From an uncultured Candidatus Saccharibacteria bacterium (GTDB lineage Bacteria; Patescibacteriota; Minisyncoccia; Phycocordibacterales; SBAW01), in the NCBI GenBank assembly GCA_964355655.1, contig CAYHDT010000005.1:1-57791 (forward strand): a stretch of 57,791 nucleotides of DNA. Direction: 5' to 3'. The notes under the pieces were generated by a model, which was given only the letters and a program-made list of their open reading frames with translations, was not told the DNA's origin and ran no database searches. Both the position numbers and the translations under genes were made by a program. Every line of letters starts with the position of its first letter. Position 1 is the stretch's first letter. Shown one piece after another: positions 5,269-42,796 of this stretch.

Positions 5269-6111
5269 TTAGCGCGAAAGGAATTTTTTTGAAAGTCGCA
5301 GAGCCTCTTTTTTGCCGCCCACCCAGTGTATGTCTTTGTGGCGCTTAAACCACCGGTTTTGGCGTTTTGCATACTGCTCTTCTCCGCGGACAATCGCATC
5401 CGCCAACTGCTTTTTAGTTATCTTTTTATCCAGATAGTCGGCTAATAAGGCAAACTCAAATCCCAACTCCAAGAATCTTTTTTTAGACAGTGCGGCGCGG
5501 AGTTTTTTTGCTTCGGCTACCATACCGAGCTTTAGGCGCGCCGTGACGCCCGCGCGGATGTTTTTAGATTTTTTTAAGCCCAGCCACAGCACCCGGTAGG
5601 GGGGCTCGCGCACCAGGCTTGGCACGGTGCCGAGAGTTTTCGCTATCTCTATCGCGCGGATCATCCGTACCGGATTGCGCTTGTCTACGCGTTTGGCGCT
5701 GGCCGGGTCGATTTTTTGCAGTATCGCAAAAAGCTGCGCAGGAGACTTTTTAGCAAGCGCCGCGCGGAGTGTTTTATCCGGCGCGACTTTCGGCAGGCGC
5801 CATCCGCGCAAAAAAGCATCGGCATAAAGCCCGGCTCCGCCGACTACAATAGGTATTCTAGTATTTTGCAAAATACTGGAACAGATTTTCGCCGCATCTT
5901 TTTGGTACTGGCCGACGCTGTATTGGCGGCGCGGGTCGGCAACTCCCACCATGTGGCCTCTCTCCGCGCGCGAGATGACAGCCATGCCCCTATAGAGCTG
6001 CCGGCTGTCGGCCGAGATAATCTCCCCGTTCAGTTTTTTAGCAAGCCAAATGCCGAGCGAGCTCTTGCCCGAGGCGGTCGGGCCCACAATAGCTATAACT
6101 TTATGCTTCAT
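5269..6111 (-). CDS. miaA: tRNA dimethylallyltransferase
   Basis: GPTASGKS, IISADSRQLY, VGGAGLY, YAKRQ..WF. Confidence 0.95.
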   Translation of the reverse strand: MKHKVIAIVGPTASGKSSLGIWLAKKLNGEIISADSRQLYRGMAVISRAERGHMVGVADPRRQYSVGQYQKDAAKICSSILQNTRIPIVVGGAGLYADAFLRGWRLPKVAPDKTLRAALAKKSPAQLFAILQKIDPASAKRVDKRNPVRMIRAIEIAKTLGTVPSLVREPPYRVLWLGLKKSKNIRAGVTARLKLGMVAEAKKLRAALSKKRFLELGFEFALLADYLDKKITKKQLADAIVRGEEQYAKRQNRWFKRHKDIHWVGGKKEALRLSKKFLSR

Positions 6112-6144: not shown

Positions 6145-7029
6145 CTATGCCGGGGTATGTTCTTTGTCCGCAAGATAGGCGCGGATGGATGCGAGATAGC
6201 GTTCCATCCCATCGACCTGGTAGCCTTCGATTTTATCTTGTTCCCACCCGAATTTTACGACGGTTGAAACCGAAACAATGCTGCAGCCTTCGATACCACG
6301 CCGCTTAAGAGCTGCGTCGCCGCCAATGTCGTACCCGAGCACTGTCAGCCGATTGTGCACGGTATACGGCGCTCTGCGCAGCTGGTCGGTCGCTTCGGTA
6401 ACTTCCCGTTCGATGACCACGTGCGTAGCGCCAAGGGTCAGAGCTTCTTCCGGCGGCATCGGGTTGATGTGTTCGTTCTTTCCCGTGCCTTTGCTACGGA
6501 CACCTGTCGCAATAATGGTGCGGAATGTCTTCCGGCTTCGCGTACCTTCCAAATATCGGAGGAATTGCGCCGGGCACGTTATCGCAGAGATGCCCGCAAA
6601 TTCCGCTTTGACTTGCCGTCTCATAAGCCATTCAAAGTCTGCGTACCCGTACTCCCGCTTGCACTCCTCATCATTCTGGTCCGAGCGTATCGGAATCATG
6701 ACTATGGTCATTTGACCCGATAGAGCGCGAATCGATTTGAGAGTTTCACTGTTGACACCACTGTCAACACTTAAGTATTGCGGAGCATACGGACCCAATG
6801 CCCGGTACAGCTTGATGATGGAGACCATACGATCATGAACATCGGTGTGTTTGAGGTCAACAAATACATTGACCCGCCCGCCGATATTTTTAAGGATATT
6901 CTCCAACCCTTGCTTCAGGATAAGGTTACCGAGCTTAATTCCCCATACTCCCTGGATAGGGAGGATGTTGATGATTTGTTGACGCAACTCGCCGCTCGCC
7001 CGGTCCAGGCCGAGAATGATGCTGTCCAC
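6145..7029 (-). CDS. OMP decarboxylase (PyrF)-like protein fused to a C-terminal PyrE-like fragment
   Basis: GTG start behind GGAG; ILGLD, GIKLG, VDLKHTD, TGVR, GATHVVI; tail resembles the OPRTase C-terminus without the PRPP motif. Confidence 0.65.
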   Translation of the reverse strand: MDSIILGLDRASGELRQQIINILPIQGVWGIKLGNLILKQGLENILKNIGGRVNVFVDLKHTDVHDRMVSIIKLYRALGPYAPQYLSVDSGVNSETLKSIRALSGQMTIVMIPIRSDQNDEECKREYGYADFEWLMRRQVKAEFAGISAITCPAQFLRYLEGTRSRKTFRTIIATGVRSKGTGKNEHINPMPPEEALTLGATHVVIEREVTEATDQLRRAPYTVHNRLTVLGYDIGGDAALKRRGIEGCSIVSVSTVVKFGWEQDKIEGYQVDGMERYLASIRAYLADKEHTPA

Positions 7030-7096
7030 CGTTTTTTCTCCCTGCTTAACTATTGTCTGCCCACACCGTACCAAAATATTCCTTTTAAAACAAACG

Positions 7097-7244
7097 TTGT
7101 GCCGGGAGAGAGAATCGGTCACAACTCCCGTCGGGCCGTCGCCCGCCGGGGTCGCGACCCCGGCTCGCGGTCCAGCAGGTGCTGGACATCGCTCCGCCTT
7201 TCGATTCTCGCAAAAACTTCGTTTTGTGCCGGGAGAGAGAATCG
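7097..7244 (-). mobile_element. ~106-bp GC-rich mini-element at tRNA-Leu 3' end, flanked by a 21-bp direct repeat
   Basis: TTGTGCCGGGAGAGAGAATCG at 7097-7117 and 7224-7244; internal hairpins. Confidence 0.75.
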
Positions 7245-7310
7245 AACTCTCATGATGTTGCCATCGCGGGATTTTGAGTCCCGTGCGTCTACCAATTCCG
7301 CCATCCCGGC
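7227..7310 (-). tRNA. tRNA-Leu(CAA)
   Basis: GCCGGGA/TCCCGGC acceptor stem, CTCAAAA loop, long variable arm. Confidence 0.95.
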
Positions 7311-7335
7311 AGGATGCCATGTTAGAATATCTCCA

Positions 7336-8325
7336 ATGCTGCAATTTCACAATAACGCAATTTTTTGGGTGGAGGTCGATAAAATCAAACCGAACCCGTT
7401 TCAGCCGCGCAAGGAGTTTGATGAGGCCAAGCTCAATGACCTGGCAAAGTCGATCCGCCAGTACGGCGTTATCCAGCCGTTAACAGTCACTCGCGTCGAA
7501 GTAGAGAAGCCCGACGGCGGGATAGCTACCGAATACGAGCTTATCGCCGGGGAGCGCCGGCTGCGCGCCGCAAAACTGGCGGGCGTGGGCTCGGTACCGG
7601 TGCTTATCCGCGCGGGGCACGATGACGACAAAACTAAGCTCGAGCTGGCTATTATAGAAAACCTCCAGCGCGAGGACCTTAACCCGGTAGACCGCGCCAA
7701 AGCTTTTGATCAGCTGGTGCGCCAATTCGGCTTTAAGCACGTACAAGTGGCAGAAAAGGTCGGCAGGTCCCGCGAGTATGTCAGCAACACTATCCGCCTA
7801 TTGCTGCTGCCGCAGACAATGCAGGACGCTTTGTCCGAAGGGAAAATAAGCGAGGGACACACCCGCCCGCTCCTGATGCTTGCCGACCGTCCAACCGAGC
7901 AGGAGGTGCTTTTTAGAGAAATTATGCTGAAGCGGCTTACGGTGCGCGACACCGAGTCTATCGCTCGGCGCATCGCCTTTGACCGCGTGCGCAAAAAAGA
8001 ATATTTATACTCGCCTGAAATTTTGAGCATGGAGCGGGAGCTTACCGAGGCGCTCGGTACGCGTGTTGCGATCGAGCCCAAGGAGCACGGCGGCAAACTC
8101 TCTATTGACTTTATGTCCGAGGACGACCTTAGGGTGCTTTTTGCCGCGCTTGCCGCGCGGATTGCAGCCGGCAAACAGCCGGCTGTCCCGACCGAAGTGG
8201 AGGGACACAGCCCCTCGACTAGGCTCGGGGCAACCAGCTCATCTGATGAGCTGGTTGATGACCGCTCTAAAGATGAAATAGTAAAAGACGAAAACACCTT
8301 CGACCCGGGCAGTTTTTCCCTTTAG
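7336..8325 (+). CDS. parB: ParB/Spo0J partition protein
   Basis: NPFQPRKEF, YGVIQP, LIAGERRLRA, IIENLQREDLNP; start set at ATG 7336. Confidence 0.95.
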   Translation: MLQFHNNAIFWVEVDKIKPNPFQPRKEFDEAKLNDLAKSIRQYGVIQPLTVTRVEVEKPDGGIATEYELIAGERRLRAAKLAGVGSVPVLIRAGHDDDKTKLELAIIENLQREDLNPVDRAKAFDQLVRQFGFKHVQVAEKVGRSREYVSNTIRLLLLPQTMQDALSEGKISEGHTRPLLMLADRPTEQEVLFREIMLKRLTVRDTESIARRIAFDRVRKKEYLYSPEILSMERELTEALGTRVAIEPKEHGGKLSIDFMSEDDLRVLFAALAARIAAGKQPAVPTEVEGHSPSTRLGATSSSDELVDDRSKDEIVKDENTFDPGSFSL

Positions 8326-42747: not shown

Positions 42748-42796
42748 AGCTCCGCAAAAACTTCGTTTTTGCTCCGTATCTTGCTACTCTTCCGTG

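Follow-up and report, generated by a model that had tools for sequence, protein, structure and literature searches.

The window analysed here, a stretch of 57,791 nucleotides from an uncultured Candidatus Saccharibacteria bacterium (contig CAYHDT010000005.1), carries on its minus strand an intact tRNA-Leu(CAA) gene at positions 7226-7310 (ARAGORN; Rfam tRNA, 59.1 bits; ARAGORN/Rfam start at 7226/7). The gene, which does not encode CCA, is the host gene of a small element that lies behind it, and all features of the element are read on the minus strand, i.e., in the sense of the tRNA. A segment of 21 nt, TTGTGCCGGGAGAGAGAATCG, is present at 7224-7244 and again at 7097-7117 (direct repeat D1, 21/21 positions and hence 100% identical) with a spacing of 127 nt, exactly as an earlier sequence-only reading had described it. 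In the tRNA sense the repeat extends from C56 to the discriminator A73, i.e., over the last 18 nt of the tRNA, and then over three trailer nucleotides, CAA. The proximal copy of this target segment (T, 7224-7244) is made up of the 3' part of the T-loop, the 3' strand of the T-stem, the 3' strand of the acceptor, the discriminator and the CAA trailer; the distal T copy (7097-7117) reads CGAUUCUCUCUCCCGGCACAA. No credible ORF, or any other ORF of note, was found in the 106 nt between the two copies, and the locus has no cassette array.

The proximal T is followed by a linker (L, 7210-7223), a weak A/U mini-hairpin AAAAC-GAA-GUUUUU, and then by an inverted copy (T', 7200-7209, GAGAAUCGAA; inverted repeat I4), which is complementary to tRNA positions 54-63. 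The inverted copy of the T arm reported in the sequence-only reading is thus real and matches at 10/10 positions (TTCGATTCTC at 7200-7209 against GAGAATCGAA at 7237-7246). Next comes the conserved core with its two stem-loops, both defined by RNAalifold on eight paralogs and by pair counts in 112 homologs. Stem-loop 1 (7162-7198; 97 bits with the covariance model R1) consists, in order, of GGC, a GGA internal loop, GCG, an AU bulge, the variable stem GUCCAGC..GCUGGAC, CGC, GA and GCC. In stem-loop 2 (7117-7159), GGUCGCGA is paired with UUGUGACC, a conserved G-U pair included, and a variable stem and the loop CGACGG stand above. In the MFE fold, residues 7202-7209 of T' and 7110-7117 of the distal T form the 5' and 3' strands, respectively, of a closing helix, P1, and the acceptor-strand part of the distal T is left unpaired; T' and the distal T are thereby predicted to close the two stem-loops into a three-way junction. 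Folding of the 141 nt that follow the tRNA gene gives -71.6 kcal/mol (z = -5.95 against dinucleotide shuffles). Both spacer hairpins pointed out earlier are present, and GTCCAGC..GCTGGAC proved to be the apical stem of stem-loop 1, but the palindrome CCGGGGTCGCGACCCCGG is peculiar to the tRNA-Leu(CAA) copy and does not represent the conserved pairing.

The linker belongs to a 17-mer whose recurrence at 42753, also noticed earlier, occurs once (42753-42769). This second copy forms a perfect 8-bp A/U-rich hairpin, GCAAAAAC-UUC-GUUUUUGC, directly after the stop codon of an FKBP gene, and no core lies beside it. The chance expectation of the 17-mer is 0.03 per window, and the whole genome has two copies. 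The AAAACGAAGUUUU hairpin of the linker and the 17-mer is also found behind a tRNA-Cys gene, both proximally and distally, in a distant assembly (locus L082), and may represent a module that recurs as terminator or linker.

Downstream of the element lies a weakly OMP-decarboxylase-like (pyrF-like) gene at 6145-7029 on the minus strand (Pfam PF00215, E = 6e-4, below the cut-off). A scan of the locus found no consensus promoter or terminator separating the tRNA, the element and this gene, which makes co-transcription plausible: the element is probably transcribed together with the tRNA, of which it would be the trailer, and with the downstream gene, to whose leader it may belong. Together, the element and the OMP-decarboxylase-like gene separate tRNA-Leu from miaA (5269-6111). 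In relatives with the same parB-to-tRNA-Leu arrangement (L201, L205, L209, L210, L214, L219 and G017), miaA starts 13-20 nt after the tRNA. The end of the 6145-7029 gene, ...CCCCGGCATAGCG, bears a faint likeness, recognised post hoc, to the tRNA end and trailer of G017, and on this weak match it could be the remnant of a larger insertion.

The core family and its fold

The 127-bp unit downstream of tRNA-Leu(CAA) belongs to a large family of structured elements without genes that are located directly behind tRNA and tmRNA genes of Patescibacteria. Uniqueness to this locus, which the sequence-only reading had named as fatal to its proposal, does not hold, since the family is present elsewhere in the genome, in the genus and in other Patescibacteria. 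BLAST of the spacer against the 863-kb genome from which the window comes returned copies of its middle part, diverged in sequence, from five further contigs, in all cases just after tRNA genes. The ~87-nt core between the repeats is found in about 13-15 copies in this 0.86-Mb genome, mostly just behind tRNA genes; eight of these copies could be aligned cleanly, the covariance model R1 yields 15 matches in the genome, at least nine of them just behind tRNA genes, and about one quarter of the tRNAs of the genome carry the element. The paralogous cores of this genome are 77-80% identical to each other with fully compensated stems, and they are old.

Across 25 congeneric species the number of R1 matches in a genome varies from 0 to 37, with zero in some near-complete genomes, and 33 of the 40 closest genomes have at least one. 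An even sample of 301 genomes from the phylum contained 12 positives (~4%), a lower bound given the stricter filters applied. When species-representative genomes were scanned for an exact motif, at least 119 loci came to light in other assemblies, which belong to many Parcubacteria lineages, to bins labelled Saccharibacteria and to one Elusimicrobia bin. Among the matches listed and in the genome of the window, a tRNA or tmRNA gene lies on the same strand at most 250 nt upstream of 82 of the 110 cores; these host genes represent 18 amino-acid types and tmRNA, and the gap from the tRNA end to the core is ~30-90 nt with a mode at ~50 nt. In viral contigs the strict motif had 0 matches, and the 21 matches to a looser 18-mer all failed the covariance model.

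The fold of the core is supported by very strong covariation. RNAalifold on the eight paralogs gives two stem-loops in which 20 of 31 pairs are compensatory, i.e., changed on both sides. With 112 homologs, 94.8% of the cells of the alignment are standard-paired against 72.4% after shuffling (0/500 shuffles reach the observed value), double changes are seen in 27 of the 31 pairs, and sliding the partners by 1-3 columns as a control lowers pairing to 18-49%. Alignment columns 128/220 hold a G-U pair in 106 of 110 sequences, and a second position is G-C in 59 sequences and G-U in 42. These conserved G-U pairs would be C-A mismatches on the opposite strand, which implies that the fold is restricted to the tRNA-sense strand, be it RNA or single-stranded DNA. 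Conserved unpaired bases are found in the GGA/GA internal loop of stem-loop 1 and as an A in stem-loop 2; part of such sequence conservation is imposed by the search pattern, from which the stems and the 3' UGACC are free.

With Rfam 15, at gathering thresholds and at E values up to 10, the tRNA alone passes and nothing credible is obtained for the spacer, the HDV-like, hammerhead, twister and tRNA-like families included. To our knowledge, the core does not resemble hammerhead, HDV-like, group II domain V or T-box RNAs, with which we compared it by eye. Full-text literature searches returned no description of such elements, and the family is apparently undescribed.

Some features of the wider family deserve mention. 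Three copies of the core in the genome of the window (G000), two of them partial, lie away from tRNA genes (C3:77640-77695, C3:80052-80138 and C7:31264-31326): two are on contig 3, where they occupy a region poor in genes downstream of tRNA-Ile, and one follows the terminator of a protein gene and has kept T-loop-like arms. Linker hairpins very often have a CUGC tetraloop followed by a U tract (C1, C2, C3 and C16 of the same genome; L076, L097, L098, L109 and others), as in CUGCC-CUGC-GGCAG and GCGAA-CUGC-UUCGC, and this CUGC linker hairpin is a second conserved module.

Arms and the host tRNA

The order of parts in every unit is the tRNA tail (T), the linker hairpin (L), the inverted copy (T'), the ~87-nt core and the direct copy (T), with the tRNA gene itself intact. 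Two styles can be distinguished. In the T-loop style, T' stops at the complement of T-loop position 54/55, and positions 56-58 mark the start of the distal T; the tRNA-Leu(CAA) locus and a tRNA-Met gene on contig 11 (20-nt exact repeat, 11-nt inverted copy) are of this kind. In the 3'-end style, T consists of the last few tRNA bases and the trailer. Across the family the direct repeat measures from about 4 to 29 nt. The tRNA-Leu(CAA) copy is an ordinary, well-preserved family member with a perfect 21-nt repeat and a short T' that lacks an anti-acceptor part.

The inverted arm differs at every site, copying the tRNA behind which it stands. Its longest match has a mean of 9.3 nt to the own tRNA against 5.5 nt to other tRNAs, and for the direct copy the corresponding means are 10.4 and 5.1 nt. 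The own tRNA surpasses all 30 controls in 37 of 82 cases for the inverted and in 38 of 82 for the direct match, where ~3 of 82 would be expected by chance. The co-variation between the inverted copy and the T arm of each host tRNA, whose lack the earlier reading would have taken as a refutation, is therefore present. Cores that are 91-94% identical stand behind different tRNAs with their own arms each, e.g., behind tRNA-Gln (L053) and tRNA-Ser (L087).

Where the distal copy differs from the tRNA, T' pairs only with the tRNA base at 33 positions and only with the distal base at 9, many of these positions lying beyond a truncated distal copy. Thus T' tracks the tRNA more closely than it does the distal copy. 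Because the complementarity of T' extends further along the tRNA than along the distal copy, the anti-T-loop segment may pair with the pre-tRNA, as had been suggested from the window.

Presence and absence at tRNA-Leu(CAA)

Relatives with the same tRNA mostly do without the element. The same or a near-identical tRNA-Leu(CAA) lacks it in G023, G004, G003, G017, G020 and G016, and it is absent from 19 of 21 metagenome contigs that carry the identical tRNA 3' half. In G019 and G011 an R1-type core follows tRNA-Leu(CAA), with different linkers and a diverged stem-loop 1. In G021 and in two metagenome contigs (L211 and L216), an unrelated two-hairpin core is flanked by arms of the same style, GAGAGAAUCGAAAG ... 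CGAUUC. Several core types thus share one arm logic. This second core type (L028 = G021:C2; L211, L216) is formed by ACUUUUCG..CGAAAAGU together with CUAC..GUAG.

A species-specific 26-mer designed for a strict empty site had 0 matches in metagenomes. The 3' flanks of the empty sites, compared with that of the window, score no higher than the 95th percentile of shuffled sequences and are not significantly similar; the segment TTTTAAAAGG, common to the flank of the window and to G023, is marginal and is reached by 2 of 500 shuffles. A demonstrable ancestral flank in the distal flank was considered and dropped because of this lack of significant similarity, and for the same reason the exact boundaries of the inserted DNA are only those suggested by the repeat. 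Since recombination between the two T copies would restore the empty site exactly, presence and absence cannot separate gain from loss, and the data at tRNA-Leu(CAA) show polymorphism, not a direction of change.

The region behind tRNA-Leu(CAA) is rearranged among relatives, and several other features are seen there. In L027 (G019:C50, 775-830) the distal tail copy breaks off after GATTCT, where an insert of 34 nt with TGGCC at its end intervenes before the tail continues (GATTCTCTCCCTCGGCAC); it has the look of a mini-insertion nested at a T-loop-like site. In the congeneric L024 (G020:C62, ~1585-1890) a small GIY-YIG-type ORF is followed, next to parB, by a second copy of the 5' half of tRNA-Leu(CAA), interrupted by the GC palindrome cctgcctgccggcaggcagg; apparently, another kind of element inserted into this tRNA on its 5' side. 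In L021 (G004) the identical tRNA-Leu lies between parB and the pyrF-like gene, as in the window (7020-7340), in the opposite orientation, with parB downstream on the same strand and with a GC palindrome, cctgtctgccgacaggcagg, abutting the tRNA-Leu 5' end. In L022 (G003), parB likewise comes after tRNA-Leu on the same strand. Compared with the window, the tRNA gene alone appears to be inverted.

Nature and possible origin of the element

The family fits no described class among those that we compared it with. It resembles MITE- and REP-type repeats (Correia/NEMIS, RPE, REPIN) in being short, non-coding, structured and multi-copy, with copy numbers that vary between close relatives; the frequent co-transcription of such repeats with their neighbours can be counted as a further likeness. 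Unlike them, it lacks both element-borne terminal inverted repeats and a target duplication of fixed length, its insertion sites are linked to tRNA ends, its stems change by compensation and not by decay, and no parent transposase was found among the families tested (Y1_Tnp, serine recombinase, reverse transcriptase, GIY-YIG and IS110). With integron attC sites and CTX-type IMEX it shares small size, the lack of promoters, a high copy number, the folding of one strand and the conservation of stem structure over sequence. However, no IntI, attI platform or cassette array was found, the arms copy the host gene, and, in contrast to attC, there are strongly conserved motifs that are not R and L boxes. 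It also differs from IS110/IS1111 elements with their bridge or seek RNA, since no DEDD recombinase (PF01548) exceeds the cut-off in 40 genomes, and from retroelements (retron, group II intron, SINE-like), since 10 of 13 element-rich genomes are without an RVT_1 match.

Nor has a dedicated enzyme emerged from the surroundings of the elements or, among the families tested, from their genomes. The genes that cluster around the at least 119 loci are housekeeping genes, and among the matches listed a large serine recombinase lies near six loci, too few to matter. In the same 40 genomes the number of elements is uncorrelated with the numbers of reverse transcriptases, serine recombinases, tyrosine recombinases, Y1 transposases and GIY-YIG proteins (Spearman rho -0.13 to 0.24, all p > 0.1), and IS110 (PF01548) gives nothing above the cut-off. 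The genomes without an RVT_1 match are 10 of the 13 that have at least eight elements, and five such matches are present in an element-free genome. In the genome of the window (G000), six paralogous ORFs of ~230-320 aa on contigs C2, C4, C6, C7 and C8 have a partial Y1_Tnp (HUH) match (profile ~41-119). Y1_Tnp-like genes are present in most relatives, in numbers that do not track the element count.

On balance we lean, by a small margin of confidence, towards the view that the element is a protein-less insertion element, selfish or at most domesticated, which homes to tRNA ends, depends on its host and has its arms written from the target. Such an element would be gained and lost at tRNA ends and, encoding no enzyme, would rely on host functions. 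Its arms would be written from the target at or soon after insertion and would not be carried from site to site, as is suggested by the near-identical cores that stand behind different tRNAs, each with the letters of that tRNA. The old age of the paralogous cores in this genome counts against this view, as do the dissimilar 3' flanks of the empty sites.

The main rival is that the element is a functional RNA module of the tRNA transcript, i.e., a selected cis-acting trailer or leader with an attenuator-like arrangement of T, T' and T. In this scenario, T' would pair with the 3' half of the tRNA or with the distal copy, and the module could report on or assist tRNA folding and 3' processing, or could stabilise or regulate the downstream mRNA. 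The strand-specific covarying fold with its conserved unpaired bases (the GGA/GA and CGACGG loops), the lack here of a consensus terminator or promoter between tRNA, element and downstream gene, and the longer match of T' to the tRNA than to the distal copy (33 against 9 positions) all agree with it; a host function would likewise be compatible with strong purifying selection on the fold and with the conservation of core motifs from order to order. Nevertheless, we regard this explanation as unlikely. Within one genus the copy number runs from 0 to 37 with none in some near-complete genomes, the family occurs in only ~4% of evenly drawn phylum genomes, the same tRNA does without the element in most relatives, and only about one quarter of the tRNAs of the genome itself carry it. 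Moreover, in many members a terminator-like hairpin with a U tract stands between the tRNA and the core, and unrelated cores occur within the same arms.

Less probable still is a classical att duplication, the origin to which the sequence-only reading was inclined. It had proposed a minimal non-coding integrative element or an island scar, on the ground that integrases using tRNA 3' ends duplicate this segment; a small non-coding unit with a duplicated tail at a tRNA 3' end is indeed what is found, but the scar of a larger island is not, the spacer being a conserved structured core with strong covariation. The version considered here would take the unit for a remnant or a miniature cis-mobilisable element at the T-loop, moved by a tyrosine recombinase, either an integrase acting in trans or the host Xer acting on the folded strand, as in CTX-type IMEX and integron attC. 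A direct repeat that runs from the T-loop past the tRNA end is the signature of integration into tDNA (PMC4383910), a folded strand with T' paired to T would offer a double-stranded copy of the target, a single Xer-like recombinase is present in nearly all genomes, and the region behind tRNA-Leu(CAA) is rearranged among relatives. Islands and prophages that enter tRNA and tmRNA genes by means of tyrosine integrases (T-loop class, Islander definition; PMC4383910) are like the element in using the 3' part of a tRNA or tmRNA gene as the target, in the breakpoint in the T-loop, in leaving the gene intact and in the displaced 3' copy at the far end of the insert. They differ from it in that here the insert is 106-127 nt, is without integrase or cargo and includes an inverted copy of the target, and whereas an island lineage is specific for one tDNA target, here one core with a covarying fold serves nearly all tRNA types with rewritten arms.

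Several observations speak against the integrase link itself. No integrase was found in or near the element at the locus or among the neighbours of the matches listed. There is essentially one Xer-like tyrosine recombinase per genome, on another contig in the genome of the window, and this one recombinase is present in element-free genomes too. A single core family is found behind tRNAs of 18 amino-acid types and tmRNA, its arms rewritten each time, which a sequence-specific integrase would not allow, and a tRNA tail carried along to another tRNA would wreck the latter; the direct repeat varies in length as well, from about 4 to 29 nt. On these observations a role of the host Xer is possible but unsupported.

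An autonomous RNA device, i.e., a small ribozyme or guide RNA that uses its anti-T-arm to choose tRNA transcripts or genes in trans in order to cut or join them, is very improbable. The three-way junction, the conserved bases of the junction and loops and the arm complementary to the tRNA would suit it, and small ribozymes do exist beside tRNA genes, e.g., the theta ribozymes, which are minimal HDV-like ribozymes behind phage tRNA genes (PMC10879173). The element is like them in being a small structured unit just downstream of tRNA genes. It is unlike them in that there is no Rfam ribozyme match, even at E = 10, the covarying helices found are nested and are not those of an HDV-like double pseudoknot, the arms derive from the target, and none is found in viral contigs. 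Theta and HDV-like ribozymes have their cleavage site at the first base directly after the tRNA, whereas the core of the element does not abut the tRNA end and begins ~30-90 nt from it. A chance local event, i.e., a single tandem duplication of the tRNA tail filled with random GC-rich sequence, has nothing in its favour beyond the repeat itself and is refuted, to the point of leaving it almost no probability, by the recurrence of the core in genome, genus and phylum with covariation.

If the element is indeed a protein-less insertion element, the position of its junctions gives a hint of how it might be made. On both sides the core junctions fall in the T-loop, with the end of T' at 54/55 and the start of the distal T at 56-58. 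The T-loop sequence in which both junctions lie is common to nearly all tRNAs, which suggests copy-choice or folded-strand recombination. As a conjecture, copy-choice at T-loop microhomology could proceed as follows: the nascent strand would fold back at the linker hairpin and copy the tRNA tail as T', then switch to a donor core and return at the T-loop. Alternatively, and equally as a conjecture, a folded single strand could recombine, with the T:T' stem mimicking the target. More tentatively, and with odds that we put clearly against it, we propose that the family may be a new class of protein-less, self-tailoring element, in which a three-way-junction core spreads among tRNA and tmRNA genes by host replication or recombination functions alone, entering at the T-loop or at the 3' end and trailer, and in which inverted and direct copies of the target are written and the tRNA is never damaged.

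If this is true, ultra-small (CPR) bacteria carry a common element that is not a transposon, an integrase island, an integron cassette, an intron or a catalogued RNA, but a folded core of ~90 nt that can join itself to nearly every tRNA gene, whose tail it uses to build its closing helix. As a corollary, tRNA ends could become docking or rearrangement sites for single genes, such as the OMP-decarboxylase-like gene between the element and miaA, the latter standing directly after the tRNA in several relatives. For annotation, these units would explain many of the "att-like" tRNA-tail duplications and contig breaks in CPR assemblies, which would then not be scars of prophages or islands. If the element is a functional RNA instead, it would represent a new tRNA-linked RNA domain; if it moves, the mechanism of its movement could reveal a new way of moving or copying DNA without a dedicated enzyme.
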